A stretch of 36,089 nt of DNA, from the NCBI GenBank assembly GCA_038056005.1, contig JBBUGS010000050.1, positions 1-36,089 of the forward strand, read 5' to 3'. Made by a program: the position numbers and the translations under genes. Each line of letters opens with the position of its first letter. The stretch's first letter is position 1. Below the pieces are notes generated by a model, which searched no databases, was not told the origin of the DNA, and saw only the letters and a list, made by a program, of their open reading frames with translations. Source of the stretch: Patescibacteria group bacterium (GTDB lineage Bacteria > Patescibacteriota > Patescibacteriia > UBA9934 > CAMTUG01). Of the stretch, positions 631-36,089 are shown piece after piece.

Positions 631-1422
631 ATGATCGTCTTTGCTGCCCTTACGCCGCATAGTCCCCTGCTCTTGCCTTCAGTCAACAAAGATAAGCAAA
701 AGCCGATTGCAAAAACCAAGACGGCCATGGCCGCACTCGCTGACGAGCTGTATGCGGCCAAGCCGGATGTGATTCTCATTATTTCTTCTCACGGCAACTT
801 GTACGAAGATGCATTCACCATCAATCTTCATGATGCGTATCGTCCCGATCTGTCCGAGTTTGGGGATTTGACACTTCATCGGCCCTTCTCGCCTGACTTC
901 AAGTTGATCGATGATATTCAGCGGGCGCTGCGCCGCAAACAGTTCCCTATCGGACTTACCTCAGACGAGAAGTTAGATTACGGGGCTTCGGTGCCACTGT
1001 TGCTCCTCACCGAGCATTTACCCAGCATTCACATTGTCCCGTTGAGCTACTCCCATCTTGGTGGCAAAGAACATTTTCAGTTTGGTGATGCGTTGAAAGA
1101 TGTGCTCGTCAACAGCAACAAGCGCATTGCGGTGATTGCGAGCGGCGATCAGTCGCACGCGCTCCAGACAACCTCGCCAGCCGGCTTTCACAAACAAGGC
1201 AAGGCGTATGACAAGGCGATTCAAGACGCGATTGTTAATCGCAACACTGCCCAATTGTTGAAACTTACACCCGAGAGTCTGGAACATGCTCACCAATGCT
1301 CGTACCAACCAATCCTCATGCTTCTTGGAATCATGGAGCGCTTAAGCTATGACCCCGTTATTCATTCTTACGAGTTTCCCTTCGGCGTTGGTTACTTAGT
1401 GGTCCATTTTGAACTTGGTTAG
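631..1422 (+). CDS. class III extradiol dioxygenase / LigB-MEMO superfamily-like protein
   Basis: 263 aa. The N-terminus IVFAALTPHSPLLLP, then ILIISSHG and AVIASGDQSHAL, resemble the His-containing motifs of the LigB/MEMO fold. The assignment is at fold level only. Confidence 0.55.
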   Translation: MIVFAALTPHSPLLLPSVNKDKQKPIAKTKTAMAALADELYAAKPDVILIISSHGNLYEDAFTINLHDAYRPDLSEFGDLTLHRPFSPDFKLIDDIQRALRRKQFPIGLTSDEKLDYGASVPLLLLTEHLPSIHIVPLSYSHLGGKEHFQFGDALKDVLVNSNKRIAVIASGDQSHALQTTSPAGFHKQGKAYDKAIQDAIVNRNTAQLLKLTPESLEHAHQCSYQPILMLLGIMERLSYDPVIHSYEFPFGVGYLVVHFELG

Positions 1423-3121
1423 TGTGATTATTGCACGCGTTGCCCTTCTGCGGAGGATGCCTCGGCGGATCGACGTTCTGGACTATTCTGTGCCAGAAGG
1501 ACTGTCGGTTAGTCGGGGTGATTTAGTATTAGTGCCGTTTCGTTCACTGCTCACACGGGCAGTGGTCATTTCCGTGGGAGAAACAGAGCCGGTCGGAAAG
1601 CTGCGTCCGCTGACTTCCCTCCTCGCGCCAAAAGCAATGAGCGAAACAGATCTGCGTGTTTTTGAAACAACGGCCAAGCAGCTTGTGCAATCCACCTCGA
1701 CGGTGCTGCGCGAAGTGTTTACGAACCAAGCGCCTCGTCCGAGCGCGTCGGAAACACCGAGACCAAGCATCCGCCAGACAGAAGTTCCGTTTGTGAAGCA
1801 AGCGATCGAGACTGTCCGATCTACTGCGGAATGTTTTATCGAAGTGCTCGACTTTGTCCAAGCCGTTGCGCTCGTCGAGGCGATTCGAAAAACCATTCCT
1901 GGCCCGCATCGCGTCTTTGTCCCCCACCATCATGACGCAGCACTTATTGACGGGGCGATGACCCGTCTGGCGGGGCTGGAGCTCAACACCCCATCGGTGG
2001 TCGATATTGTGGTGCGCTCTGGCATTCCTGAGCACGCGTCGTATGATCGCAATCCTCGCTATGACGCCCGCGAGATTCTTGCGTTGCAGCATAAAGAGAC
2101 AAAGCGGAAATTAGTCTTTATTGATGTCGCTCCTCGTGTCGTTGACCTTGCAGCATTCGAGACGATTTTGCAGGCACCGACGGAACTCATAGAGCCCCCA
2201 CAGATTATTGATCTTGTTGATCAAAAGAAAGCAGGCTTTACTTCCCTGCTGACCGAGCCGATTCTCGCTGCAACCACCGAGGCTTTACAGAGCGGCAAGT
2301 CAGTGCTCCTTTCCTTGAACCGCAAAGGCGTTTCGACCGGCCTGCGCTGTAAAGATTGTGGCTTCTCGCCGCTCTGTAAATCGTGTGGGGGCTCGCCAAC
2401 GGTATACGAAGATCACATGGAGTGTCACCGTTGCGGCGTGAGCGCTCCGATCGCCACCAGTTGTGCAAAATGCGGCAGCGTGAAGCTCACCCAGCGCGGA
2501 GTGGGCAATCAGCAAGTGAAAAAGCGGCTTCAAGAATTGTTTCCGGGCGTTGAAGTTGTGGTCGTCGAAAAACCTGATAAGAAGTCTCCGGCGCCGTCTC
2601 GATCGCGAAAGCAGCAAGTTATTATTGCGACACGTTATTATCTCGACGCGGTGTTGAATCCTCTTGACCCTCCGTCGTTTGGTTTGGTAGCCGATGTGCT
2701 CGGTGACATTGGCTTATCTGATCCAGCCTACACGGCCGGAGAAAACGTCCTCCATCATCTGCTCGAGCTCCGCGGTGTAGCTTATCGGGCCAAGTGTCCG
2801 TTTCTCGTCCAGACCTGGGACAAGCAGCTTATGGACAAAATGCTTCTTGATCCACATGGATATTTAGAGGAAGAAAGGGCACTTAGAAAACTTGTCTCGC
2901 TCCCGCCCTACGGAATCCTGTATAAGCTCACCACACGCGGAGAAACGACCATCGAAGAGATCAAACAGCGCCTCCACAACGCTTTGGCGGGTCTTACCGT
3001 GCGCGAGCACACTGAGCGTAAACATCACGTGCTCGAGATCCTTATTCCGAATGGTAGGAGCGGCAATTTACCCTCGGTCTTGAAACAACTTCCAGATGAC
3101 GTTATTATCGAACGCGTATGA
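1409..3121 (+). CDS. priA: PriA-like primosomal protein N' homolog lacking recognisable ATPase motifs
   Basis: The N-terminus VLDYSVPEGLSVSRGDLVLVPF is like the PriA 3'-DNA-binding domain. The LNRKG-CKDCG...CKSCG...CHRCG...CAKCG segment gives four CxxC pairs like the PriA Cys-rich region. I found no GxGKT Walker A or DExH motif. The start is uncertain: TTG at 1409 or in-frame GTG at 1424, just after the upstream stop. Confidence 0.7.
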   Translation: MNLVSVIIARVALLRRMPRRIDVLDYSVPEGLSVSRGDLVLVPFRSLLTRAVVISVGETEPVGKLRPLTSLLAPKAMSETDLRVFETTAKQLVQSTSTVLREVFTNQAPRPSASETPRPSIRQTEVPFVKQAIETVRSTAECFIEVLDFVQAVALVEAIRKTIPGPHRVFVPHHHDAALIDGAMTRLAGLELNTPSVVDIVVRSGIPEHASYDRNPRYDAREILALQHKETKRKLVFIDVAPRVVDLAAFETILQAPTELIEPPQIIDLVDQKKAGFTSLLTEPILAATTEALQSGKSVLLSLNRKGVSTGLRCKDCGFSPLCKSCGGSPTVYEDHMECHRCGVSAPIATSCAKCGSVKLTQRGVGNQQVKKRLQELFPGVEVVVVEKPDKKSPAPSRSRKQQVIIATRYYLDAVLNPLDPPSFGLVADVLGDIGLSDPAYTAGENVLHHLLELRGVAYRAKCPFLVQTWDKQLMDKMLLDPHGYLEEERALRKLVSLPPYGILYKLTTRGETTIEEIKQRLHNALAGLTVREHTERKHHVLEILIPNGRSGNLPSVLKQLPDDVIIERV

Positions 3122-11114: not shown

Positions 11115-11468
11115 TTAAACAAATTCAATCTGAGCCATTTGCGCGCCGTCGCCTTTGCGCGGCCCCATCTTCACAATGCGGGTGTAACCGCCCTTGCGAG
11201 ATTTGTAGCGGGGCGCCAAGACTTCAAGCAGTTTCTTGACCGGCAATTCTTGCTGGCCAAAGAAACGGAGTAACTCGCGGCGGTTATGAAGCGTAGCTTC
11301 TTTGCCTCGGGTCACGAGCTTTTCAACCATTGGTTTGATCGCTTTGGCCTTTGCTTCGGTGGTTTGCACCTTTTCGTATAGGACCACATCCAATGCAAGC
11401 CCCTTCAAGAGCGCTGTGCGTGGCCCAATTTCGCGGTCAAAGACTTTTCCAGAATTGCGATGGCGCAT
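11115..11468 (-). CDS. rplQ: 50S ribosomal protein L17
   Basis: MRHRNSGKVFDR...LYEKVQTTEAKAKA...GGYTRIVKMGPRKGDGA. Confidence 0.95.
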   Translation of the reverse strand: MRHRNSGKVFDREIGPRTALLKGLALDVVLYEKVQTTEAKAKAIKPMVEKLVTRGKEATLHNRRELLRFFGQQELPVKKLLEVLAPRYKSRKGGYTRIVKMGPRKGDGAQMAQIEFV

Positions 11469-11474
11469 AAGGTT

Positions 11475-12179
11475 TTATTCAGCGGCCGGGGCCTCAAGCT
11501 TTTCAGCAATCAAGTTATAGTGGTCAAGCAAAATTGCTACCGATTGTTTGACCGCCTCTTGTGGAGTGATCGTGCCGTCGGTTTCAATTTTCATGATCAG
11601 CTTGTCGTAGTCAGTGATTTCGCCAACGCGGGTTGGTTCCACTTTGAAGCCAACGTTGCGCACGGGCGAGAACAACGAGTCGATGGCGATCTGTCCGATT
11701 TCGCCGCTAGGCTCTCGCTCTTCGGTTGGTGAGTAGCCGCGTCCACGTCCGACCGTGACTTCCAGTTCAAATTCACTCTTCTCGTCGGTGACGGTGGCGA
11801 TGTGCAAATCTGGATTCATGATTTCGACGTCGGCGTTGGCTTCAAAATCTGCGCCCGTCGCTGGACCTTGTCCGGATTTCTTGAGGGTGAGCTTCACCGG
11901 GTTCTCGCTGTGAAGCTTCAAGCGCAGGCCCTTCAAGTTCAAAATAATCTGCAAGGCGTCTTCAAGCACACCCGTGACTGCCGTGAACTCGTGCTGGACA
12001 CCCTTAATTTTGACCGAGGTCACAGCGGCGCCAGAAAGTGAGGACAAGAGCACGCGACGCAGGGCGTTGCCGACGGTGCGTCCATAACCGTAGAAAAACG
12101 GTTCGATCACTAAAGTCGCCTCGGCGGGAGTAGAGCCGGGCAGGAAGGTGATCGTTGATGGAAGCAAAATATTCTCCAT
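11475..12179 (-). CDS. rpoA: DNA-directed RNA polymerase subunit alpha, N-terminal (assembly) domain only
   Basis: GYGRTVGNALRRVLLSSLSGAAVTSVKIKGVQHEF is typical of the alpha NTD. The ORF is only 234 aa and stops 6 nt before rplQ, so there is no room for the linker and CTD. Confidence 0.92.
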   Translation of the reverse strand: MENILLPSTITFLPGSTPAEATLVIEPFFYGYGRTVGNALRRVLLSSLSGAAVTSVKIKGVQHEFTAVTGVLEDALQIILNLKGLRLKLHSENPVKLTLKKSGQGPATGADFEANADVEIMNPDLHIATVTDEKSEFELEVTVGRGRGYSPTEEREPSGEIGQIAIDSLFSPVRNVGFKVEPTRVGEITDYDKLIMKIETDGTITPQEAVKQSVAILLDHYNLIAEKLEAPAAE

Positions 12180-14135: not shown

Positions 14136-16013
14136 TTACTCTAATATGGCTTTAATTCGCCTAATTCCAGCCGATGAGGCTTCTTCTTTGGCGATCGTGA
14201 AATGACCCATGGTTCCCGTTTGATCCACATGGGGCCCCCCGCAAATTTCCTTGCTGAAGTAGCCCTTCATGTCGTCACCCACAAAGTATACCTTAATTTG
14301 GTCTCCAAGTTGAGCGTACTTATCCTCAAACAAGCCGATCGCCCCACGGGCCTTGGCTTCTTCAACCGTGAGCATTTCAAAGTGGACAGGAAGATCTTTT
14401 TTGATTTGCTCGTTGACAATATCTTCTGTGGCTTTGATTTGCTCTGCTGTCATTTTTTCTCCGTGCGAGAAGTCGAAGCGGAGACGCTCTGGAGTGATGT
14501 TTGATCCTCGTTGCTCGACGTGATCGCCGAGGACTGTGCGAAGTGCCTGATGGAGCAAGTGGGTTGCGGTGTGATATTTGACCGATTGTTCTGAGGTGTC
14601 AGCAAGTCCGCCAGCGAATTTCTTTTCTGAACCAGCTCGGGAGAGGTCTTGGTGCTTCTTAAACTCTGCTTCAAAGGCGGTTTTATCGACCTCTTGTCCT
14701 TTCTCTCGCGCCAGTTCCTCGGTGAGCTCCCATGGGAAGCCGTAGGATTGATAGAGATTAAAGGCGTCGATGCCGCTCACGGACCCTTGAGCACTGAAAA
14801 GCTTTTCAAATTCCTTAAGGCCTTTGTCCAAAGACTGACGGAACTTCTGTTCCTCTTTGGTGAGTTCGGTCATGACCATATCCTTCTTTGTAAGGAGTTC
14901 TGGATAAGCTCCTTCATAGGTCTGCACATACGCTTCGGCCACACTGGCAGCAAAGTTCTCTTTGACTCCAAGTTTGTGGGCAAAGCGCACCGATCTACGG
15001 ATTAAGCGACGGACGAAATAGCCCTGATCTTTGTTGGATGGGACGATCCCATCGGCAATCAAGAACGTGGCTGCGCGCAGATGGTCGGCGATGACCCGCA
15101 TTGGTGCTGGTTCATCGCCGTAACGCTTGCCCGAGAGAGTCTCAAGGGTCTGAATGACGGGCGCAAAAAAACTAATCCGGAACATGTCCCCGCTTCCCTC
15201 TTCCGCAGCGGCGATGCGCTCCAGGCCTGAGCCGTGATCAATATTTGGTTTCTGAAGAGGAATAAACTTCCCTTCCGCTTCTTTACGATAGGTCATGAAT
15301 ACATTATTGCCGATCTCCATGAAGCGACCGCAATCACAATTAGGATGGCAATTCTTGCCGAAACGCTCGTCGTGGGGCGTTCCGAAATCGAAGAACATCT
15401 CCGAGTCTGGTCCGCAGGGATCTCCGACCGGGGTTGTGTCGGGTCCGCCATTACGGCTCCACCAGTTTTTCTTGCCGTCGTAGTAGAAAATGCGCTCGTC
15501 TGACTTCATCCCGCGATCGCTGCCGGCTTCCTGGGAACCAATGTCGGCAATTTCAGCTGTAATTTTCTTTTCTGCAAATAGCTTCTGCCAGATTTCCGCG
15601 GCTTCGGTATCTTTTGGAATATCGTATTCGGGAGCGCCGATGAAGCAAGTTACATACAGCTTCTCTGGATCCAAACCTACGACCTCGGTCAAAAACTCAA
15701 ACATCCATGGAATTTGTTCTTTCTTGAAGTAATCACCGAGCGACCAGTTGCCGAGCATTTCAAAAAAGGTCGTATGGCGATTGTCTCCGACTTCTTCAAT
15801 ATCCTTAGCACGGAAACACTTTTGGGAGTCAGCGAGCCGCGTCCCTTGGGGATGAGCTTCACCAAGCAAAAACGGCACCATCGGCTGCATCCCTGAGCCT
15901 GTAAACAAGGTGGTGGGATCGTTCTCGGGCACCAATTTTGCGGAAGGAAGGACCACGTGCCCTTTGGACTTGAAGAAATCTAAATACTTTTGACGGATTT
16001 CATGAGCAGTCAT
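14136..16013 (-). CDS. alaS: alanine--tRNA ligase, catalytic and editing domains, no C-Ala domain
   Basis: The N-terminus is IRQKYLDFFKSKGHVVLPSAKLVPENDPTTLFTGSGMQ. The editing domain carries HTATHLLHQALR and CGGPHV. The protein ends at 625 aa, right after the editing domain. Confidence 0.95.
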   Translation of the reverse strand: MTAHEIRQKYLDFFKSKGHVVLPSAKLVPENDPTTLFTGSGMQPMVPFLLGEAHPQGTRLADSQKCFRAKDIEEVGDNRHTTFFEMLGNWSLGDYFKKEQIPWMFEFLTEVVGLDPEKLYVTCFIGAPEYDIPKDTEAAEIWQKLFAEKKITAEIADIGSQEAGSDRGMKSDERIFYYDGKKNWWSRNGGPDTTPVGDPCGPDSEMFFDFGTPHDERFGKNCHPNCDCGRFMEIGNNVFMTYRKEAEGKFIPLQKPNIDHGSGLERIAAAEEGSGDMFRISFFAPVIQTLETLSGKRYGDEPAPMRVIADHLRAATFLIADGIVPSNKDQGYFVRRLIRRSVRFAHKLGVKENFAASVAEAYVQTYEGAYPELLTKKDMVMTELTKEEQKFRQSLDKGLKEFEKLFSAQGSVSGIDAFNLYQSYGFPWELTEELAREKGQEVDKTAFEAEFKKHQDLSRAGSEKKFAGGLADTSEQSVKYHTATHLLHQALRTVLGDHVEQRGSNITPERLRFDFSHGEKMTAEQIKATEDIVNEQIKKDLPVHFEMLTVEEAKARGAIGLFEDKYAQLGDQIKVYFVGDDMKGYFSKEICGGPHVDQTGTMGHFTIAKEEASSAGIRRIKAILE

Positions 16014-26228: not shown

Positions 26229-26237
26229 AGTAGGGTT

Positions 26238-26266
26238 ATGTTAGGGCTGAAAGGGCCACCTGTCAA
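26238..26266 (-). promoter_or_regulatory. putative near-leaderless promoter of the riboflavin operon
   Basis: Minus strand: TTGACA (26266-26261), a 17-nt spacer, then TAACAT (26243-26238). Then 9 nt (aaccctact) precede the ATG at 26228. Confidence 0.5.
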
Positions 26267-26272
26267 CGCGCC

Positions 26273-26301
26273 TTGCAAAGAGGGGGTTGTGGTGGTAAAT
26301 T
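26273..26301 (+). promoter_or_regulatory. putative promoter of the carrier-protein gene, divergent from the rib promoter
   Basis: TTGCAA (26273-26278), a 17-nt spacer, then TAAATT (26296-26301). SD AGGTG at 26309-26313 and ATG at 26319. Confidence 0.5.
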
Positions 26302-26318
26302 CTCGCTCGAGGTGAATA

Positions 26319-26582
26319 ATGGTTAACCGCAAGGCTATCAAGCAAGACCTTCTCCGATTTCTTTCCGACGCGTCGCGTGGGGCAATAGCGATCACGGAGG
26401 AGAACAAGTACACACCCTTTTGTGATCTCGGGGCTGACAGCATCATGCTCTACGACATGTGCTTCAGCATCGAGCGGCGGTATGAAATCCAGTTCGAGCC
26501 CAACGAATTTCACAGCATACGAGAGGGTTCATTCAGTGCCCTTCAGCTACTCGTGGAACTTAAAGTCGATGCACACCCGTGA
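26319..26582 (+). CDS. acyl/peptidyl carrier protein-like (phosphopantetheine attachment motif)
   Basis: 87 aa. DLGADSIMLYDM matches the (D)LGxDS(L/I) Ser attachment motif at the usual position in a four-helix carrier protein. Confidence 0.7.
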   Translation: MVNRKAIKQDLLRFLSDASRGAIAITEENKYTPFCDLGADSIMLYDMCFSIERRYEIQFEPNEFHSIREGSFSALQLLVELKVDAHP

Positions 26583-26613
26583 CTTCTCCAAGCCCGTGAC
26601 TTCTCCAAGCCCG
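26576..26613. repeat. 17-bp perfect tandem duplication (2.2 copies) spanning the carrier-protein stop codon
   Basis: CCCGTGACTTCTCCAAG occurs at 26576-26592 and again at 26593-26609, followed by a partial CCCG. Confidence 0.9.
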
Positions 26614-26650
26614 CGCCCACACAGTGGCGCGGTGCTGTCGTTTACATCGC

Positions 26651-26679
26651 TTGTGCCAGCAGGTTCTACAAGCTAGAAT
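26651..26679 (+). promoter_or_regulatory. putative near-leaderless promoter of the alpha/beta hydrolase gene
   Basis: TTGTGC (26651-26656), a 17-nt spacer, then TAGAAT (26674-26679). Then 9 nt (gtcctcact) precede the ATG at 26689. Confidence 0.45.
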
Positions 26680-26688
26680 GTCCTCACT

Positions 26689-27576
26689 ATGCTTAATGGT
26701 TCACTGGTAAAAACAACCACATCGGATGGTTTAGAGCTAGCAGGATTTTGGATGGACCAAAAATCCGATCTGGCAGTGTTTCATTCTCACGGTACAGCTG
26801 GAGATTTTTATACGCACCAATTTATTGAAGATGAAGGCAAGCGGCTCGCTGAAATGGGTATCTCATTTTTGACAGCCAACAATCGCGGCCACGATGTTTA
26901 CGCTGATATTCGAAAATTCGAGAACGGATCCGTCAGCTGGGCGCATGTCGGCGGCGGTTTTGAGCGTTTTGAAGATTGCATTTTTGATATCAGTGCGTGG
27001 CTGGATTTCCTGAGCGCTCAAGGCGTGAAGCGTGTCGTTCTTCAAGCACATAGCCTAACCCAAAAGATTTTGTACTATCAACATCTCAAGCATGATCCTC
27101 GGGTGGTCGGCCAAATCCATCTGTCGCCGTGCAACGATGCCGGCTTTATGCTCCATCTTCTCGGCGAGCAGAAGTACGGGGAGACAAACAAAATGGTAGC
27201 GAAGCTTGTGGCCGAAGGAAAAACTTCTGAGCTGTTACCGAAGGAGCTCGCCGTTGTCTGCCCGATGGGTCCTTTGCCTTACTTGGGTTATTTAACAGAA
27301 GAGGGTATGGGCAATCTTTTCCCTTATCACAAAGCAGACTCAACGAAGTGGTCTATGCTAGCCGGGACAACGGATCCCCTTCTCGCTATTTTTGGCGGCG
27401 CTGATGGATTTATTAAGCCATCAATCGATGAAGCGGCCAAGCTCTTTCGTGACCACGCAACATCTTCAGCAACTACATCGGTAGAAGTTATTCCCAATGC
27501 CCCACATAGTTATGTCGGTTATGAAAATAATCTTACATCAATAATTTCAACATGGCTCTCTCTCCTTCAAAACTAA
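26689..27576 (+). CDS. alpha/beta-fold hydrolase (DUF1749-like)
   Basis: 295 aa. VFHSHGTAGDF and LQAHSLTQ (a nucleophile-elbow-like xHSxx) with a late His (PNAPHSY). The assignment is at fold level. Confidence 0.7.
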   Translation: MLNGSLVKTTTSDGLELAGFWMDQKSDLAVFHSHGTAGDFYTHQFIEDEGKRLAEMGISFLTANNRGHDVYADIRKFENGSVSWAHVGGGFERFEDCIFDISAWLDFLSAQGVKRVVLQAHSLTQKILYYQHLKHDPRVVGQIHLSPCNDAGFMLHLLGEQKYGETNKMVAKLVAEGKTSELLPKELAVVCPMGPLPYLGYLTEEGMGNLFPYHKADSTKWSMLAGTTDPLLAIFGGADGFIKPSIDEAAKLFRDHATSSATTSVEVIPNAPHSYVGYENNLTSIISTWLSLLQN

Positions 27577-28958
27577 CGAAACCATTCCCTGAGCCGATCC
27601 CGCTCAAAAAGTTGATTGGACCAAGTTTTATTATTTTGGCTCTAGGACTCGGATCTGGCGAAGTTATTTTGTGGCCGTACCTTGCCTCTAACTACGGCTT
27701 GGGAATTGCTTGGGGCGCGTTGCTTGGCATTTCGTTTCAATATTTCATCAACATGGAGATCGAGCGCTACGCTTTGGTGAAAGGCGAAAGCGTATTTGTG
27801 GGGATTGCTAAGATTTTTCGCGTGGCGCCTTATTGGTTTATCGCTTCCACGTTTATTGGCTTCGGACTGCCGGGAATTATTGCTGCCTCGGCGGTGGTGG
27901 TTGCCTCCGTGATTGGTGTTGAGTACGTCAGTCTTGTCGGCATTGCGCTGTTGCTTGTGATCGGATGCATTTTGAGTTCTGGGAAAACTGTCTACGGACT
28001 CATGGAAAAGCTCACTAAGACGATTCTGCTCGTCGGCGTTCCGTGTATATTTATCTTAGCGCTCACTGTGGCTACCTCGATGGATTGGAGTGCTCTCGCA
28101 AGCGGAGTCATCGGCCACGGTGAAGGTTATCGATTCTTGCCCGAGGGAATTGTTTTGGCAGCCTTTTTGGCTGCGTTTGCCTATTCCGGTGCCGGAGGAA
28201 ACTTGAACCTCACTCAATCTATTTATGTAAAGGAAAAAGGGTATGGGATGGGCAAGTATGCTGAGCGGGTCTCAGGCCTCTTTCGTGAAGGGGGTGTGGC
28301 TGAAGCCGTGCATCTTGAAGGTGTGGAGTTTGTCGACAACCCCGAAAACCGTCGACGTTTTAAGATTTGGTGGCGACGCATTTCCACAGAACATGCCCTT
28401 GTCTTTTGGTTTATTGGCGCCTTGTCGATCCTCTTGCTCATGCTACTTTCTTATGCGACGACGTACGGAGTAACCGACAACGCCGAAGGAATTAGTTTTG
28501 TTTTGCATGAAGGAGCTGCCATTGGGGCGCACATCACCCCTGTCCTCGGTTCACTTTTCTTGGTGATTGTGGGCATCATGCTTTTTCAAACACAACTCGG
28601 TGTGATGGACTCAACGTCGCGGATTATGGCCGAGAATGCAGCGATTGCTTACATGAAAAAGAAGGCGGTGCGCACGGTGCCACTTTCAAAAATCTACTTT
28701 GGGTTTTTGTGGGCGCAAATTGCCTTCGGGATTTTGCTTTTTGCGATTGGGGTAACTGAACCGAAGTCGCTGCTTATTCTCGGTGCGTGCATTAACGCCT
28801 TTGCGATGTTTGTCCACGTCGGCCTGGTGGCCATTCTCAATTGGAAAGCGCTGCCGAAGTTTTATCAACCACCGCTCTGGCGGCGTATCCTCCTCGGTTT
28901 AATATTCGTCTTTTTTGGATTCTTTAGTGTCGTGGTTATTTATAGCCAGTTGTTCTAA
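27552..28958 (+). CDS. Nramp-superfamily-like polytopic transporter lacking the canonical DPGN/MPH metal-site motifs
   Basis: 468 aa with about 11 TM segments. The N-terminal GPSFIILALGLGSGEVILWPYLASNYG parallels Nramp TM1 but has GSGE in place of DPGN. The start overlaps the hydrolase 3' end by 25 nt. Confidence 0.6.
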   Translation: MALSPSKLTKPFPEPIPLKKLIGPSFIILALGLGSGEVILWPYLASNYGLGIAWGALLGISFQYFINMEIERYALVKGESVFVGIAKIFRVAPYWFIASTFIGFGLPGIIAASAVVVASVIGVEYVSLVGIALLLVIGCILSSGKTVYGLMEKLTKTILLVGVPCIFILALTVATSMDWSALASGVIGHGEGYRFLPEGIVLAAFLAAFAYSGAGGNLNLTQSIYVKEKGYGMGKYAERVSGLFREGGVAEAVHLEGVEFVDNPENRRRFKIWWRRISTEHALVFWFIGALSILLLMLLSYATTYGVTDNAEGISFVLHEGAAIGAHITPVLGSLFLVIVGIMLFQTQLGVMDSTSRIMAENAAIAYMKKKAVRTVPLSKIYFGFLWAQIAFGILLFAIGVTEPKSLLILGACINAFAMFVHVGLVAILNWKALPKFYQPPLWRRILLGLIFVFFGFFSVVVIYSQLF

Positions 28959-28979
28959 GCAAGTTGCTTTCCCTGCAAA

Positions 28980-29011
28980 GAAAAAAGATCATCGCAAAGA
29001 TGATCTTTTTT
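28980..29011. terminator. bidirectional rho-independent terminator
   Basis: AAAAAAA-GATCATC-GCAAA-GATGATC-TTTTTT. It serves the plus-strand transporter gene and the minus-strand tRNA-Gln. Confidence 0.8.
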
Positions 29012-29012
29012 C

Positions 29013-29086
29013 TGGCTCCGGGACGTGGATTCGAACCACGGTTAACGGATTCAGAGTCCGTTGTCCTGCCGCTAGACGATCCCGGA
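29013..29086 (-). tRNA. tRNA-Gln (anticodon CUG), CCA encoded
   Basis: Hand-folded cloverleaf. Acceptor stem TCCGGGA/TCCCGGA. D stem GTCT/GGAC. Anticodon stem ACGGA/TCCGT with loop CTCTGAA. T stem CGTGG/CCACG with loop TTCGAAT. Discriminator G followed by CCA. Total 74 nt. Confidence 0.95.
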
Positions 29087-29103
29087 ATGACTTTGTGTCA
29101 GCG

Positions 29104-29132
29104 AGACTATCATTATTTATGCCGTCGGTCAA
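29104..29132 (-). promoter_or_regulatory. putative promoter of tRNA-Gln
   Basis: Minus strand: TTGACC (29132-29127), a 17-nt spacer, then TAGTCT (29109-29104). It lies 17 nt upstream of the tRNA 5' end. Confidence 0.5.
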
Positions 29133-29215
29133 CGCGGCTATTGGTGGTTAAAATGTCGTCGACCCCGTCGCAAGAGTCGACGAGGTCGTGTGAGAGCGGC
29201 GCGGAGAAGCGTCGC

Positions 29216-29614
29216 CTAGCTGGTATTGCCGCAACGGAGCTTGACGAGCTTGGGGGTTGGGACGATGACGGTGGTTCCGGCCTCGTAAGCGATGAGCCCC
29301 TCGGCCAAAAGCTCCGCGACCTCGCCATCAAACACGCGACGAAGTTCATCGAAGTCGACCCCTTCGGTCCGCTCACCGTGGGCCACGATGACGTCCTGCT
29401 CGAGATCCCCGTAGAGGGCATCCACTTCCACCCCAAACCAGTGGCCATGGCTCTCCGCCCTTTCCTGGGAGAAGCGGAGGAGACGGTTGGCGGTGCCGTC
29501 CCGGGTCGTCTCAGTGCTCCGGACCGGGATGGGCCCGAGCTCGTTCGGACGAAGCTTTTCGACCCACAGACGACCACAGATGAAGAGCTCAGGAACGGTG
29601 TCGGTCACGGGCAT
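29216..29614 (-). CDS. hypothetical acidic protein in GC-rich cassette B (132 aa)
   Basis: ATG preceded by AGGAG with a 5-nt spacer. A hand count of 29281-29340 gives 63% GC, with a per-codon-position pattern of 80/35/75%. Codon choice looks like genuine high-GC coding: Ile ATC 5 of 5, Thr ACC 9 of 11, Lys AAG 3 of 3, Glu GAG 13 vs GAA 5, and no ATA/TTA/CTA. The mirror plus-strand ORF (ATG 29153..29671) would be dominated by Gly GGT and contain GTA, so it is less likely. No family is recognised. Confidence 0.55.
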   Translation of the reverse strand: MPVTDTVPELFICGRLWVEKLRPNELGPIPVRSTETTRDGTANRLLRFSQERAESHGHWFGVEVDALYGDLEQDVIVAHGERTEGVDFDELRRVFDGEVAELLAEGLIAYEAGTTVIVPTPKLVKLRCGNTS

Positions 29615-29638
29615 GGAGGCTCCTGGGGGTTCGCCCTG

Positions 29639-29668
29639 AAACTAACATGGTTCGACTTGGGCGGTCAA
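29639..29668 (-). promoter_or_regulatory. putative promoter of cassette B
   Basis: Minus strand: TTGACC (29668-29663), an 18-nt spacer ending in TGT (extended -10), then TAGTTT (29644-29639). Confidence 0.4.
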
Positions 29669-29705
29669 TAGAAAAACGACCGCGCGAGGCGGCCGCTTTT
29701 CTATT
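29667..29705 (-). terminator. rho-independent terminator of the 29721..30500 gene
   Basis: AATAGAAAA (29667-29675) pairs with TTTTCTATT (29697-29705). They enclose a GC-rich inner stem (CGACCGC...GCGGCCG). The minus strand shows the stem followed by TTTTTCTATT. Confidence 0.7.
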
Positions 29706-29720
29706 CGTTTGATTTCTCTT

Positions 29721-30500
29721 TTACTCAACGTTCTCATCCGCATCAACGATCAAGTGAACTTCGGTGACATCGGTGAACGAGACTCCGTTATCGTCGACCA
29801 CAACGGTGCCCTTAAAGTGCACTTTGGATCCAACGCTCAAATCTGATTCACTGGCTTGACCGTCTTTTCCAAAGTAGAAGACGGTATTGTCGCTGTAATT
29901 CACTGTTGCTGAAGCAGCTTCGTGATCCTTGAAAGGCTTGAGCTCAACCGTAAAGGTATTTGCTTCGGTATCAACGGCTGAAACTTCAGCTCCGGCGCGA
30001 TGATGCTTTCCCTTGCTCAAATCCGTATTGATCAACTTAGCAGTGACTGTTCCATCAGCTGACAAACTGCCGAAGATACGAACGCGCAAGCCAGTCGTCA
30101 AATCTGCCGTCGTCCCCTCTTCACCATCCACCATGACTTTGGTGGAAGCGTTAACCGCCACCGTGATGCTCGATCCAACTTCAGGAAGGACTGGAGGAGT
30201 CAATTTACCCTTAAATTCTCCACCAGGAACACGCCCCTTGAGTTCATCGTATGAGACACCTATTGGAACGACTCTATCTTCATGCTTTTGGTCGCGTGGC
30301 GGAACGTCAACAACCGTTAATGTGAGACTACCTACCCCTTCATTGTCTAGCGAGACAGAAGTGATGTCAGCGATAATCCCTGGACCACGGCGAACATGCT
30401 CATCGTGCTGACCGTCGTTCCCCTGGGCAGAGGCAATCGGGGCAAGGGTGCTGAAACCGAGAGCAAGAGCTCCAACCGCAGCGAGGTACTTGATATTCAT
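29721..30500 (-). CDS. secreted repeat protein (DUF5666-like beta-rich domains)
   Basis: Signal peptide MNIKYLAAVGALALGFSTLAPIASAQG. Repeated G(S/T)xV(x)V...G segments such as VRIFGSLSADGTVTA and VHFKGTVVVDDNGVSF. The family call is tentative. Confidence 0.65.
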   Translation of the reverse strand: MNIKYLAAVGALALGFSTLAPIASAQGNDGQHDEHVRRGPGIIADITSVSLDNEGVGSLTLTVVDVPPRDQKHEDRVVPIGVSYDELKGRVPGGEFKGKLTPPVLPEVGSSITVAVNASTKVMVDGEEGTTADLTTGLRVRIFGSLSADGTVTAKLINTDLSKGKHHRAGAEVSAVDTEANTFTVELKPFKDHEAASATVNYSDNTVFYFGKDGQASESDLSVGSKVHFKGTVVVDDNGVSFTDVTEVHLIVDADENVE

Positions 30501-30632
30501 AGCGTTAATTATTTACGAATTATTTTCTGGACGCATACCCATACACCCGCCGCTCCCATTTCGTCACAAGCCGATTGGTTACGAGGCTACACCAAAATCG
30601 GCCTCAGGTTACCAGGAGAGGTTTCGCCAATC

Positions 30633-30665
30633 AAAAACCGCCCGTCGTTTTATAACGATGAGCGG
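30633..30665 (-). terminator. putative terminator of the 30675..31178 gene
   Basis: Minus strand: CCGCTCATCGTT-ATAA-AACGACGGGCGG, an imperfect 12-bp stem with 2 mismatches, followed by TTTTTG. Confidence 0.55.
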
Positions 30666-30674
30666 CTTCTGAAA

Positions 30675-31178
30675 TTACTTAACCGCGACGACGTTGATAT
30701 ATCCGAGTGTTTGACCTTGGTCGTAGAGGCTAATCTCGTACGCACCCAGCGTGTCGGCATCAAATTCATAGGTTCCTTGGACGCCGGCTTTGAGCGCAAG
30801 ATTTTGGGTGTGGCCTTGAAGCTCTAACGTGTCAGACTTCGATGACGTCACCCGCATCACCACATGTTTGCCTTGTGGCACTTCGTAGGTTTCAGGATTG
30901 AAGGCAGCGCCTTGAGTGTAATTAATAGTGATGTAAAAGGCTGGCTCGTCTTCGTCTGTTGCTGTTGAGGTGACGCTGTTGGTTGAGGTCTCCGGCTTGG
31001 ATGTGGTATTCGTCTTCGTTGATGAGTTCGCTGAGTTCGGCAGTGTGGAGTTTGCGTAGTTTACTGTGTCAGATACCCCATCACGTTCTGGCGTTGGCGT
31101 GCGATGCTCAGCCCAGATGCCAAGTAGTACGGCGAGGACAAAAAGGACCACGACTGGCCCCAGAGATCGTTTATCCAT
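30675..31178 (-). CDS. N-terminally anchored, Ser/Thr-rich-linker protein with a cupredoxin-like C-terminal domain and no Cys ligand
   Basis: TM segment GPVVVLFVLAVLLGIW and an STN-rich linker. YEVPQGKHVVMRVTSSKSDTLELQGH...GTYEFDADTLGAYEI resembles the cupredoxin/EfeO-type fold. No Cys is present, so a type-1 Cu site is unlikely. Confidence 0.55.
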   Translation of the reverse strand: MDKRSLGPVVVLFVLAVLLGIWAEHRTPTPERDGVSDTVNYANSTLPNSANSSTKTNTTSKPETSTNSVTSTATDEDEPAFYITINYTQGAAFNPETYEVPQGKHVVMRVTSSKSDTLELQGHTQNLALKAGVQGTYEFDADTLGAYEISLYDQGQTLGYINVVAVK

Positions 31179-31211
31179 AGAAATGCGTTAGGACTTATTC
31201 CTTAAACACGG

Positions 31212-31240
31212 TTGACAGTCACCTCTGAACACTTTACAAC
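31212..31240 (+). promoter_or_regulatory. putative promoter of the GC-rich DnaN-like cassette
   Basis: TTGACA (31212-31217), a 17-nt spacer, then TACAAC (31235-31240, a weak -10). SD GAGG at 31248-31251 and ATG at 31259. Confidence 0.4.
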
Positions 31241-31258
31241 AGGTGCAGAGGAAAAACC

Positions 31259-32401
31259 ATGACGTCCTCGCCGACTTCTCTGACTTCTTTCCCTTTCGAC
31301 GTCGCAGCCCGCATGGCCGAGCGCATCACCCTCCAAGGACGCAACGCTCACCACCCCGTGGGGTTCATTCATGAGGCTGGCAAGCTGATCCTCCGGGTAA
31401 GGGTGGGATGCCCGTGGGACCACCTCGCGCTCCGCACCGATGTGCCGTTGGAGGATCAGGCGGCCGTCCACGTCGACACCCGAGCCCTTGCACAGGCAGT
31501 GCGTGCCTATGGTCGGAAGCTCGAGGTCACCCAGACCCTGGGGGGAGAGATCTCACTCTGCGGAAAGCATGGAAGTGTCCTGCTCCGTCGCTGCCGTGAG
31601 CAACCGGGCCTGTTTCCGTTCGCCGATTCGCTGGAAGGGCCCGCGTTCACCATTACGAAGGCCGATGCGGTTGCCGCTCTCGCCGCCAGTGATGCCGTAT
31701 TGCTCAAACGAGATCACAACGTCGGGATGTGGTTCGACCGGGGGCCTGGAGCCGATCAGTTCTACACGCTAAGCACGGACGGATGGCGCCTGCAGCGGCA
31801 CGCCGTGCCCTACGAAGGGCAGTACTGGATCCCTGCCAGGGTCACGTTCTCGGCCCAGACTGTTCGCTGGCTTCTGTGGATTTTGCGTCAGACCCCCGCG
31901 ACAGAGATCAGTTTCACTCGGGTGGACGAATGGCGTTGCCGAATCGACGCTGGACCACTCACCGCGATGATCTGTCTCGTACAGCAGGCCACCCCTGATC
32001 ACCGCGAAGTCATCCGTGAAGCACTCACAGCGGACCGACGCGGCATGCTCGTAGACCGCGTGGAGCTGCGCCACACACTGAGCCGCGTGAAGAGGTTGCT
32101 TCCTCCGCCGCATCACGACATCAAGCTGCGGTTCGAAGAGAACAGACTCGCCATTCTCTTCACGAATGGTCGGTGTGACCTCGAAGGCGCGATCGAGATC
32201 AAAGGATCGGGGTGGAACGGCGAACCCCAAATCGTCGGCTACAACACCCGCGCCCTCCTTGACGCTTGCCGTACCGGCCCCAAGGAGACCGAGATCTACC
32301 TCTCGCCCGGCAAGGCCCTGAAGGACGCAGGTGTCGCCTACGGACCCAAGGCCGGCCCCGACCGTTTCCTTGCCCTTTTCATGCCACTCAACATCCCCTA
32401 A
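31259..32401 (+). CDS. divergent DNA polymerase III beta sliding-clamp (DnaN-fold)-like protein, GC-rich, orphan
   Basis: 380 aa, which is clamp-sized. Blocks are collinear with E. coli DnaN as I recall it: TDGWRLQRHAVP vs TDGHRLAVCSMP; PDHREVI vs PDYRRVLP; IKLRFEENRLAILFTN vs VRLYVSENQLKITANN; VGYNTRALLDACR vs IGFNVSYVLDVLN; C-terminal FLALFMPLNIP vs AYVVMPMRL. Two hand-counted 60-nt lines gave 67-68% GC. Confidence 0.8.
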   Translation: MTSSPTSLTSFPFDVAARMAERITLQGRNAHHPVGFIHEAGKLILRVRVGCPWDHLALRTDVPLEDQAAVHVDTRALAQAVRAYGRKLEVTQTLGGEISLCGKHGSVLLRRCREQPGLFPFADSLEGPAFTITKADAVAALAASDAVLLKRDHNVGMWFDRGPGADQFYTLSTDGWRLQRHAVPYEGQYWIPARVTFSAQTVRWLLWILRQTPATEISFTRVDEWRCRIDAGPLTAMICLVQQATPDHREVIREALTADRRGMLVDRVELRHTLSRVKRLLPPPHHDIKLRFEENRLAILFTNGRCDLEGAIEIKGSGWNGEPQIVGYNTRALLDACRTGPKETEIYLSPGKALKDAGVAYGPKAGPDRFLALFMPLNIP

Positions 32402-32415
32402 GCGCTTTTCCACTC

Positions 32416-32450
32416 GGCCTCCTTTCTCGGAGGCCTTCGACGTTTTATTG
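32416..32450 (+). terminator. rho-independent terminator of the DnaN-like cassette
   Basis: GGCCTCC (32416-32422), loop TTTCTC, GGAGGCC (32429-32435), followed by TTCGACGTTTTATTGTTT. Confidence 0.65.
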
Positions 32451-33416
32451 TTTGAAAACTTGTCTGATAACTTCGTCGATAGCGATTTCTTCAATCAACA
32501 AATCAGCCACCGCGAATTTCTCGAGCAATTGTTTGGCTACAACGGGCACATCTTTTCGTGACACGTGAAGTGTCGTTTGGAGTGAGGAGTGCCGATCAAC
32601 GCGACCAAACGCCTTAAGATCATCGCGCCTTACAGGTTCGGTAAAGGTCACCGTAATTTCTTTGTGATCAGCAACGGACTGCACCAATTTCTCCAGAGGA
32701 CCATCATATTTAAGTGTGCCATCACCAATCACCATCACGCGTTCGCAAAGGGCTTCAACGTCGGCCATGGCGTGCGAAGTAAGAATAATCGTCGCCCCGT
32801 GTTCTTTATTCCACTTTTTCAAAAAATCGCGAATCGCTTTTTGTGAAACAACATCCAGACCAATCGTTGGCTCGTCTAGGAACAAGACCTTAGGTTCATG
32901 CAGTAAAGCATTAATGAGCTCGCATTTCATGCGCTCGCCGAGCGATAGACGATTCACTGGGACTGTAAACAAATGCCCAATGTTCAGAAGTTCGCCAAAT
33001 TGCTTTAAGCGCTTCTTAAATTCCTTCTCAGGAATCTCGTAAATCTCTTTGTTAAGTAAAAACGAATCGTGGGCAGGCAAATCCCACCAGAGCTGGTTTT
33101 TCTGTCCAAGCACAATAGCAAAATTGCGTTGAAAACGAGCCTCGCGCTTCCATGGCACATGGCCCATCACGGTCGCTTCACCAGACGTTGGCCAAAGAAT
33201 CCCCGAAAGCATTTTAAGTGTCGTTGTCTTGCCTGCACCGTTTGGACCAATGAAGCCGACAAACTCGCCTTCTTCAATTTGAAACGAGATGTCGTTGACC
33301 GCTGAGACAATCTTTTTCTCGCGGCGACCAATTGATTTCAACGTCCCTAAAAACCCTGGCTCCTTTTTGTAAGAGACGTACGTCTTGGTGAGATGTTGAA
33401 CGTTAATGATAGCCAT
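32445..33416 (-). CDS. ABC transporter ATP-binding protein (COG4586-like)
   Basis: Walker A GPNGAGKTT, signature LSLGERM, Walker B LFLDEPTIGLD, H-loop TSHAM. Confidence 0.93.
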   Translation of the reverse strand: MAIINVQHLTKTYVSYKKEPGFLGTLKSIGRREKKIVSAVNDISFQIEEGEFVGFIGPNGAGKTTTLKMLSGILWPTSGEATVMGHVPWKREARFQRNFAIVLGQKNQLWWDLPAHDSFLLNKEIYEIPEKEFKKRLKQFGELLNIGHLFTVPVNRLSLGERMKCELINALLHEPKVLFLDEPTIGLDVVSQKAIRDFLKKWNKEHGATIILTSHAMADVEALCERVMVIGDGTLKYDGPLEKLVQSVADHKEITVTFTEPVRRDDLKAFGRVDRHSSLQTTLHVSRKDVPVVAKQLLEKFAVADLLIEEIAIDEVIRQVFKQ

Positions 33417-35015: not shown

Positions 35016-36089
35016 CTAAGAGACCGTGCCTCCAAACTCACCTATCAAATCAGCAATGAGCTCATCTTGTTCTTGATGTACAACTTCAGCCATGATCGCC
35101 ACGTTTTCTCCAACAAGTTTGCTCAAAATATCAGCAATGATTCCGCGGTTCTTGGGCTCATTCAACTTGTCGGCAATGAAGCCGATCTTGGTGCCTATGC
35201 GGAGAGTTGCGCCGTCCATTTCTAACAACTGCACACCTTGAAGAATAACAGGCAATGTCCCACTCACTTCCATGAGGGCATTGCAGCATTCGGACCACTT
35301 GGATTTGATGGTGTCGAGGGGAACGGTGGCTGCAGAAGCATTTGCTCTAGGTTTTTCCGAGGGCGCTTGAGGAGCTGGGCTCAATGCCTCAGGCTCTGAG
35401 TCCTTCTTTGGCACGACGACAGGAGTGGGTATTGGCGCAACACTTACGGGTGCGGCTGAGGCGCTTATGTTTCCTTCGGCGGCCAGCAACTCAAGCGGTA
35501 GCTGAGGAATGCGATCATTGCGAAAGACCACTCGATATTCTAAGAGGCGCTGAATGAGTTGCTGAAGTTGAGACACACCGGAGGTCTCGGCGATCTTTAC
35601 CAAGCGAAGCGTTGCTTCTTTATCGTAGGAACTAAGCGGTGCGCTGCCGAGCGACGCAAGCAAGCTGTAACGCAAAGCTTCAAGAATTTCATCTTCGAGC
35701 GGACCAATCCGCGTGCCATCACTGGCCGCTTTGGACACAACCGTAATCGCTTCTGCAGCTTGATGTCGCGAAAGCGCCTCAAGGTAATCGAGCACCAAAC
35801 TAATGTTAGTGCGTGGAATGACCAACGATGCTTCCTCCATGGTAATTTTTTTGTCGCCACCGATCGCCAAAATTTGTCCAAACAAACTTTCGGCATCACG
35901 CAGACATCCTTCAGAAAGACGCGCGATGGCATCGAGGACTTCATCTTCAATTTTTACCGACTCGCCTTTGGCAATCATCTTAAGACGCTCAACAATATCA
36001 ACCACATTCAATCGATGAAAATCAAAGCGCTGACAGCGCGATAAAATCGTTTCCGGAACTTTGTGAAGTTCGGTGGTGGCCAAAATAAA
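35016..36089 (-). CDS. dnaX: DNA polymerase III subunit gamma/tau, C-terminal part (5' end outside the window)
   Basis: The frame is open to the window end. FILATTELHKVPETILSRCQRFDFHRL is the clamp-loader sensor-1/SRC region and is followed by domain III. A Pro/Ala-rich linker is also present. Confidence 0.9.
   Translation of the reverse strand, partial: FILATTELHKVPETILSRCQRFDFHRLNVVDIVERLKMIAKGESVKIEDEVLDAIARLSEGCLRDAESLFGQILAIGGDKKITMEEASLVIPRTNISLVLDYLEALSRHQAAEAITVVSKAASDGTRIGPLEDEILEALRYSLLASLGSAPLSSYDKEATLRLVKIAETSGVSQLQQLIQRLLEYRVVFRNDRIPQLPLELLAAEGNISASAAPVSVAPIPTPVVVPKKDSEPEALSPAPQAPSEKPRANASAATVPLDTIKSKWSECCNALMEVSGTLPVILQGVQLLEMDGATLRIGTKIGFIADKLNEPKNRGIIADILSKLVGENVAIMAEVVHQEQDELIADLIGEFGGTVS

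Follow-up and report, generated by a model that had tools for sequence, protein, structure and literature searches.

The 36,089-nucleotide contig JBBUGS010000050.1 of a Patescibacteria group bacterium (assembly GCA_038056005.1; we call this whole stretch the window) belongs to a metagenome-assembled genome of the candidate phyla radiation (CPR) from Hainich groundwater. It contains an open reading frame (ORF) at 31259-32401 on the forward strand whose product, judged by sequence comparison, is genuinely homologous to DnaN, the beta sliding clamp of bacteria. We refer to the product as the clamp, and to other contigs and proteins by working labels (contigs L001-L011; proteins P0002, P0009, P0011 and P0161). 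The explanation we favor, at a probability of roughly 0.6, is that the clamp is a horizontally acquired, stand-alone accessory DnaN homologue rather than the product of the housekeeping dnaN, and that it was probably cargo of an unsampled mobile element or phage. Acquisition of the gene is strongly supported.

Similarity of the product to DnaN

The clamp falls below the curated cut-offs of the DnaN family models. Its only Pfam match was to PF02768 (E-value 9e-4; 19.5 bits against a gathering-score cut-off of 27), PF00712 and PF02767 were not reported in the Pfam scan, and no dnaN model in NCBIfam (TIGR00663) matched it even at E-values up to 10. These scores agree with the divergence from DnaN claimed by an earlier reading of the DNA that used the letters alone (the sequence-only reading). 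With phmmer, DnaN clamps in the PDB matched residues 164-343 of the clamp at an E-value of 1.3e-5. With hhalign and a profile of 17 canonical DnaN sequences, Escherichia coli beta included, residues 45-380 aligned with residues 42-366 of E. coli beta at a probability of 99.5% (E-value 2.9e-22). All four motifs to which the sequence-only reading had pointed are present: TDGWRL (residues 173-178), PDHR (246-249), VGYNTRALLD (326-335) and FMPL (374-377).

We scanned 1.84 billion representative proteins exhaustively with phmmer and found only the clamp itself below an E-value of 1e-10. The next tier consisted of 17 DnaN-length proteins with E-values from 1e-6 to 1e-3, which were colinear with the clamp and 23-30% identical to it over the matched stretches. 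Sixteen of the 17 were 360-394 amino acids long, all eight that were scanned against Pfam carry DnaN domains, and the top match sits in a dnaA-dnaN-recF-gyrB locus. Two further phmmer matches, a 2,886-amino acid repeat protein (P0002) and a tetratricopeptide repeat protein (P0011), are not clamps. A word-indexed homologue search returned the clamp only, and scans of genome, viral and metagenome contigs (GTDB genomes, IMG/VR and JGI) gave pattern matches, none of which tblastn confirmed as a clamp relative. The clamp is a singleton among ~15 billion proteins.

Structure prediction followed by comparison with DnaN, a check suggested by the sequence-only reading, returned a three-domain clamp fold. 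The AlphaFold2 (AF2) model has the repeated strand-helix pattern of the three clamp domains, with a predicted local distance difference test (pLDDT) score of 76 and a predicted template modeling (pTM) score of 0.78. Its top Foldseek matches in the PDB were DnaN clamps only (E-value 1.9e-24; template modeling (TM) score 0.76-0.82; 14-19% identity).

We mapped residues onto E. coli beta using two independent alignments, made with MAFFT and hhalign. For the partner-binding pocket between domains II and III, we examined the E. coli positions T172, G174, H175, R176, L177, L155, P242, V247, N320, Y323, M362 and P363. Conservation of this pocket, which the sequence-only reading had put in question, held for most positions – T173, G175, R177, L178, P246, V251, N329, M375 and P376 of the clamp are kept – and failed at three, with H175 replaced by W176, Y323 by A332, and L155 not kept in either alignment. 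At the C-terminus, the canonical MPMRL reads MPLNIP.

Elements implicated in DNA sensing and loading are altered. PRK (196-198 in E. coli) is replaced by SAQ (198-200), and loop II (E. coli H148-Y154) is three residues shorter and rewritten. The MAFFT register places N154 of the clamp at E. coli R152, whereas the hhalign register places R151 there and deletes H148-D150. A loss of R152, first read from the MAFFT alignment, was dropped as a claim, since hhalign keeps R151 and deletes D150 instead; what we retain is that loop II is rewritten. In E. coli beta, D150A and R152A were the only non-viable changes among 22 point mutants, K198 is 87% identical across 90 species, and loop II and K198 have been implicated in DNA contact and loading (PMC5042465).

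Other characteristics concern the pore, the overall charge and the dimer interface. The basic residues R73 and R80 are retained, and the six helices predicted at pore-lining positions carry a net charge of about +9 by a hand count from the AF2 secondary structure and the sequence. The protein as a whole has an isoelectric point (pI) of 9.0 and a net charge of +6, compared with a pI of 4.8-7.8 among the 17 canonical clamps. At the dimer interface, E. coli I272/L273 correspond to R279/L280, and F106/L108 to V107/L109. Taken at sequence level, the ring could probably still encircle DNA and hold a partner, with the coupling of loading to sensing and the partner specificity probably changed.

We also observed that the connector between domains I and II reads EQPGLFPF, in which QPGLF (residues 115-119; 31601-31615) fits the loose clamp-binding pattern QxxLF. 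The conserved DFP motif of canonical clamps maps to an overlapping position, so the resemblance may be coincidental.

The range 31212-32450 delimited by the sequence-only reading corresponds to the clamp ORF plus a promoter-like site and a hairpin, and the single 380-amino acid clamp-like ORF that it described was found as follows:

31212-31240, forward strand: promoter-like TTGACA (31212-31217), 17-nucleotide spacer and TACAAC (31235-31240), read by eye
31247-31252, forward strand: Shine-Dalgarno-like AGAGGA, 6 nucleotides 5' of the ATG at 31259, read from the sequence
31259-32401, forward strand: divergent beta-sliding-clamp (DnaN superfamily) homologue, single ORF, 380 amino acids, pI 9.0
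32416-32435, forward strand: perfect 7-base pair GC-rich hairpin GGCCTCC-TTTCTC-GGAGGCC followed by a T-rich stretch, candidate terminator

The promoter-like site is a weak candidate only: its second hexamer ends in C, and a consensus scan missed it. The hairpin lies within the 43-nucleotide gap between the convergent clamp and ATP-binding cassette (ABC) ATPase genes; its T run is interrupted, it is missing from the list of a terminator scan, and it too is a candidate only. NCBI lists the product as a 362-amino acid 'hypothetical protein' (MEK7105649.1) that starts at Met19. We favor the 380-amino acid start at Met1, because AGAGGA is placed 6 nucleotides before its ATG and because the AF2 model has a first strand and helix within residues 6-26.

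The junctions of the clamp gene with both neighbors recur at 100% identity in two further assemblies (L001 and L002), and DNA of the window is also present in assemblies from Hainich groundwater well H41. One protein from such material, P0161, differs from the clamp by K364T, D368A and M375L. We rejected these differences as population variation in the invariant MP motif and treat them as probable sequencing errors: every one is an A>C, T>G or G>T change located within ~85 nucleotides of an end of contig L009 or L010. These two contigs cover 30865-32401 of the window, are short, come from another H41 filter fraction and include one labeled cov_2.

Foreign composition and a variable chromosomal interval

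The clamp gene has a GC content of 0.626 and a GC content at third codon positions (GC3) of 0.73, against a GC3 of 0.54 (standard deviation 0.046) for the 37 other genes tabulated (z = +4.1). The shift is sharp, beginning and ending at the borders of the ORF. The product is also rich in tryptophan and arginine, as the sequence-only reading had held, with 2.1% and 9.5% of residues, respectively, versus mostly ~1% or less and ~5% for other genes of the window.

Three further observations of that reading on the setting of the gene proved accurate. None of dnaA, recF and gyrB occurs in the 36-kb window; the clamp gene is on the plus strand between two minus-strand genes; and dnaX, represented by its 3' part, lies at the distance given. 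A tblastn search of the window with 17 clamps found no second dnaN or clamp fragment. The neighbors concerned are:

30675-31178, minus strand: cupredoxin-like gene, flanking the clamp gene
32445-33416, minus strand: ABC ATPase gene, flanking the clamp gene
35016-36083: 3' part of dnaX, 2.6 kb from the clamp gene

The proximity of dnaX is coincidental and provides no evidence of linkage, because the arrangement of dnaX with the ABC transporter is conserved in relatives without the clamp. The genes near the clamp encode secreted or surface proteins and a transporter; by inspection of their N-termini, the DUF5666 protein has a signal peptide and the cupredoxin-like protein a hydrophobic anchor.

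To place the gene within its lineage, we compared the same interval in related genomes. Proteins 71-83% identical to the adjacent ABC ATPase occur in genomes whose dnaX products are 46-53% identical to one another, and more distant ones, at 56-60% identity, in genomes named Uhr-, Magasanik- and Kerfeldbacteria. Five relative contigs were examined (L003, L004, L006, L007 and L008). L006 stops at the ABC ATPase gene and is uninformative downstream, and the other four, at 71-79% ABC ATPase identity, extend past it. L003 and L004 share the frame dnaX, two ABC permease genes, ABC ATPase, a variable segment, flavokinase, ribE, one further gene and a beta-CASP RNase. L007 and L008 have parts of the frame running from dnaX and the ABC genes to flavokinase, and the L007 contig stops short of flavokinase. 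None of the four contigs has a clamp gene after the ABC ATPase; the interval instead holds:

L003: a 1,890-amino acid fn3 protein
L004: small ORFs, CYTH and NUDIX
L007: a 468-amino acid membrane protein and a P-type ATPase
L008: Nramp, ApbE and NQR-like genes

By our estimate, an orthologue of a housekeeping clamp would be expected in such genomes at ~40-55% identity and would be easily found. Its absence from the 1.84 billion representatives indicates that the clamp is not the housekeeping dnaN of the lineage. A comparative study of Patescibacteria reported that, in most classes, the annotated DnaN and DnaA lie close to virB4 (PMC12102498), from which it follows that recognizable clamps occupy their usual place in this lineage. 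The outcome that the sequence-only reading had named as refuting an accessory gene, clustering with the clamps of sister lineages, is contradicted by the lack of any orthologue in the sister genomes.

The clamp gene lies in a segment whose content differs in every relative examined. Its main features are:

26230-32444: variable interval, from the flavokinase-ribE block to the ABC-2 transporter operon
29013-29086, minus strand: tRNA-Gln(CTG), in the same interval in L003 (17253-17326), L004 (11499-11572) and L008 (12409-12482)
29216-29614, minus strand: second ORFan of foreign composition, 132 amino acids, GC 0.632, GC3 0.77, z +5.1

The 132-amino acid ORFan, flanked by the DUF5666 gene and tRNA-Gln, lies 1.6 kb from the clamp gene. 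Pfam and PDB gave no match for it, it has no homologues, and a single-sequence AF2 model of it was unusable (pLDDT 34). This ORFan and the clamp gene may have arrived together or come from similar donors; DUF5666 and cupredoxin-like genes of native composition lie between the two. We rejected the GC-rich patch at 29.1-29.7 kb as clamp-related after tblastn with the 17 clamps. We likewise rejected the GC-rich patches as structured RNAs, since Rfam, searched over the whole window and permissively over 28.9-32.6 kb, gave tRNA-Gln only.

The tRNA-Gln is present in the interval in three of the four related contigs that extend past the ABC ATPase gene, and in L008 a DUF5666-like gene lies just upstream of it. 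Genes beside it are GC-richer than their own genomes: a CYTH gene in L004 (0.62-0.67 versus 0.52), 882- and 570-amino acid ORFs in L008, and a 118-amino acid ORF in L003. A 468-amino acid membrane protein of the window with no Pfam family (27552-28958, plus strand) is 68% identical to the product of L007 7543-8949. The L007 orthologue is the next gene downstream of the ABC ATPase gene and has the same orientation, whereas the gene in the window is inverted, with the tRNA-Gln, ORFan, DUF5666, cupredoxin-like and clamp genes lying between it and the ABC operon. This inversion indicates that the interval has been rearranged. Taken together, the composition, the tRNA-Gln, the variable content and the rearrangement make the interval between ABC transporter, tRNA-Gln and flavokinase look like a lineage-wide hotspot of recombination, integration and gene acquisition.

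These results bear on the proposal of the sequence-only reading that the gene is a second, horizontally acquired clamp. Acquisition is upheld by foreign codons, the variable interval, absence from four relatives and the lack of an orthologue. That the clamp is a second one, with a canonical dnaN elsewhere in the genome, we infer, as we do its mobile-element origin, its formation of rings and its binding of DNA and partners.

Known clamps and competing explanations

Housekeeping DnaN (PF00712, PF02767 and PF02768; TIGR00663) shares with the clamp a length of ~370-380 amino acids, a colinear three-domain fold (TM score ~0.8), the TDGxRL, PD(Y/H) and G(F/Y)N..LLD motifs, the C-terminal MP motif and basic pore-lining helices. 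The clamp differs in being only 18-23% identical over the full-length alignment, in its sub-threshold Pfam score, in its altered loop II, PRK, Y323 and H175, and in a pI of 9.0 in place of an acidic one. Its gene differs in not lying beside dnaA, recF or gyrB, in its foreign codons and in having no orthologues in sister genomes.

Beta clamps of phages – among them Caulobacter phage Sansa, Nodularia phage vB_NspS-kac65v161, Arthrobacter phage Sicarius2 and many uncultured Caudovirales in BFVD – match the AF2 model at TM scores of 0.7-0.8 and, like the clamp, are stand-alone and highly divergent proteins of the DnaN fold. They are only 7-18% identical to it, no closer than cellular clamps, and the clamp, unlike them, is not surrounded by phage genes, matches no PHROGs family and lacks relatives in INPHARED and IMG/VR. 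On this analogy, a phage-type genome would be a plausible kind of source.

Phages, plasmids and antibiotic producers are known to encode additional beta clamps, so an accessory clamp is not new in kind. P0009, a 377-amino acid protein encoded at 6001-7134 of contig L011 (JGI 3300005442, Ga0074251_100629), is likewise a divergent DnaN homologue away from dnaA; its domains II and III pass the Pfam cut-offs and its domain I is barely detected. Its gene neighbors are small hypothetical genes, a SprT-like Zn ribbon and SNase. At ~25% identity to the clamp and with an acidic pI of 5.4, P0009 belongs to another family, and as an independent example it indicates that orphan clamps in accessory regions are not unique.

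The GriR-type self-resistance copies of DnaN in producers of griselimycin and mycoplanecin are close paralogues of the host DnaN encoded inside a biosynthetic gene cluster, and they resemble the clamp in lying outside the origin region. PDB complexes of clamps with griselimycin and with mycoplanecin were among the Foldseek matches. In the window, we found no nonribosomal peptide synthetase or polyketide synthase genes, only a small acyl carrier protein (ACP)-like ORF and a hydrolase 4.7 kb from the clamp. With no biosynthetic cluster and no close relative of the clamp, we rejected a GriR-type self-resistance copy.

In the favored explanation, the donor would be a mobile element or phage of a GC-richer organism. 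If the clamp is active, it would most likely work by the ancestral mechanism: three-domain protomers would pair head-to-tail into a ring, with basic helices lining a pore around duplex DNA, and the hydrophobic pocket between domains II and III would tether a partner protein. Because loop II and K198 (which act in DNA sensing and loading in E. coli), the pocket tyrosine and the charge are all altered, the clamp would probably work with a non-host or specialized partner instead of the host replisome, or depend on another mode of loading.

Several points weigh against this explanation. Near the clamp there is no integrase, transposase, polymerase, replication, phage or plasmid gene, and searches for bounding repeats or tRNA-derived direct repeats at the island edges gave short, chance-like matches only. 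A tblastn search of 50,697 phage and 72,556 plasmid records gave no clamp match, and IMG/VR held no clamp relative. The unameliorated composition implies a recent donor, and yet no relatives exist among the ~15 billion proteins, which is odd. Within the protein, Y323 is replaced by alanine and K198 by glutamine, and either D150 or R152, depending on the alignment, is gone from loop II. Domain I is the weakest part of the AF2 model (pLDDT 55-72), and the fold match is partly circular in that the input alignment consisted of canonical DnaN, although the homology found by hhalign is independent of the model. The clamp is known from one sequence. Finally, the presence of a canonical dnaN in the same metagenome-assembled genome is assumed. 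PHROGs gave zero matches for the clamp and five other genes of the variable interval. The sequence-only reading had also offered a remnant of a mobile replicon, which is possible and gained no direct support from the searches for mobile genes, repeats, PHROGs families and phage or plasmid matches.

We consider it unlikely that the clamp is a decaying remnant, a foreign arrival that is functionless and not yet disrupted and whose divergence reflects relaxed constraint. Such decay would fit a singleton clamp without relatives, the alteration of highly conserved positions (loop II, PRK to SAQ and Y323 to A; PMC5042465) and the lack of functional partner genes nearby in an interval of fast turnover. 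It fits poorly with a 380-codon frame that is intact and keeps the order of DnaN between roughly residue 45 and the last residues, the C-terminal MP motif included, with the retained hydrophobic core and pocket-skeleton motifs and the compact three-domain fold of the AF2 model, and with an intact start context and post-stop hairpin; neutral decay that erased Pfam matches would normally add stops or frameshifts. Neofunctionalization of the clamp fold, with the pocket used off the replisome, strikes us as quite improbable. The protein could then, for example, sequester clamp-targeting toxins or phage proteins as a decoy, or serve as a DNA-tracking subunit of an undescribed conflict system. Clamp-targeting toxin-antitoxin systems reportedly exist (for example PMC12795458), which counts in its favor, as do a kept pocket skeleton combined with altered loader and DNA-sensor elements (loop II and K198), the high pI relative to the 17 canonical clamps, and the position of the gene in a variable hotspot, a kind of site in which conflict genes often collect. 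On the other side, PADLOC-DB v2 gave no match at E-values up to 0.01 for the clamp and five other interval genes, no nuclease or toxin gene is adjacent (the neighbors being cupredoxin-like, DUF5666 and transporter genes), the pocket itself is altered at H175, Y323 and L155, and a single occurrence gives no guilt-by-association signal. The defense or decoy role raised by the sequence-only reading is neither borne out nor contradicted by the PADLOC result and by neighbors that encode secreted or surface proteins and a transporter.

We are very doubtful of a repurposed clamp, in which ring fold, basic pore and pocket skeleton would be kept, the elements for loading by DnaX lost, and a non-replicative role taken up in an episymbiotic Patescibacteria cell, for example as a decoy for clamp-targeting toxins, phage proteins or host proteins or as the DNA-tracking part of a conflict module; if true, the clamp would found a new family derived from sliding clamps. 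That the clamp is the sole housekeeping replicative clamp, whether native and evolving fast or a xenologue that took the place of the original dnaN, is highly improbable. The gene is intact and has candidate expression signals (promoter-like site, Shine-Dalgarno-like sequence and hairpin), and other replication proteins of the window match their families weakly (only the 3'-DNA-binding domain of the PriA-like protein; the lid and domain III of dnaX). Yet sister genomes with neighboring proteins 71-79% identical have no orthologue at this position, nor does the protein collection contain one; the foreign GC3 is incompatible with a long-resident native gene; positions lethal when mutated in E. 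coli are altered; and a recognizable dnaN beside dnaA has been reported in Patescibacteria (PMC12102498).

The clamp is unusual in its extreme divergence, as a singleton below the threshold of every curated family, and in its selective conservation, with pocket skeleton and basic pore kept, sensor and loading elements rewritten and a basic charge. Its host belongs to the reduced-genome Patescibacteria, in which any gene that is kept would be expected to justify its cost. If the clamp is active, it would show how far the scaffold can drift and still work, or its recruitment to a non-replicative task; should it be only a decaying remnant, it would serve mainly to caution the users of annotation and marker-gene pipelines. 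A single occurrence without partner genes gives little to work with.

Other genes of the window

The window is a piece of the chromosome and includes the genes rpsM-rpsK-rpsD-rpoA-rplQ-rplM-rpsI, alaS, murJ, era, ribE/ribH and def-fmt, together with the PriA-like gene, the operon of the ABC-2 transporter and dnaX (3' part).

Several of these genes appear reduced or divergent. The rpoA gene (11475-12179, minus strand) encodes 234 amino acids with the N-terminal and insert domains; the alpha C-terminal domain was undetected in it, and rplQ (11115-11468) follows after 6 nucleotides, so that the RNA polymerase alpha subunit appears to lack this domain. In the PriA-like ORF (1409-3121, plus strand, 570 amino acids), only the 3'-DNA-binding domain matched (E-value 4e-9), and no helicase-domain match was found at E-values up to 0.001. 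From its sequence, this would be either a very divergent or a reduced primosome protein. The alanyl-tRNA synthetase (14136-16013, minus strand) has only 625 amino acids and ends directly after the second additional domain (tRNA_SAD); a typical bacterial enzyme has ~870.

At the far end of the variable interval from the clamp, the small ACP-like ORF noted above (26319-26582) has a PP-binding match at an E-value of 4.5e-6. A perfect tandem duplication of a 17-mer, CCCGTGACTTCTCCAAG x2, at 26576-26609 spans the end of this ORF and the spacer before the DUF1749 hydrolase gene.

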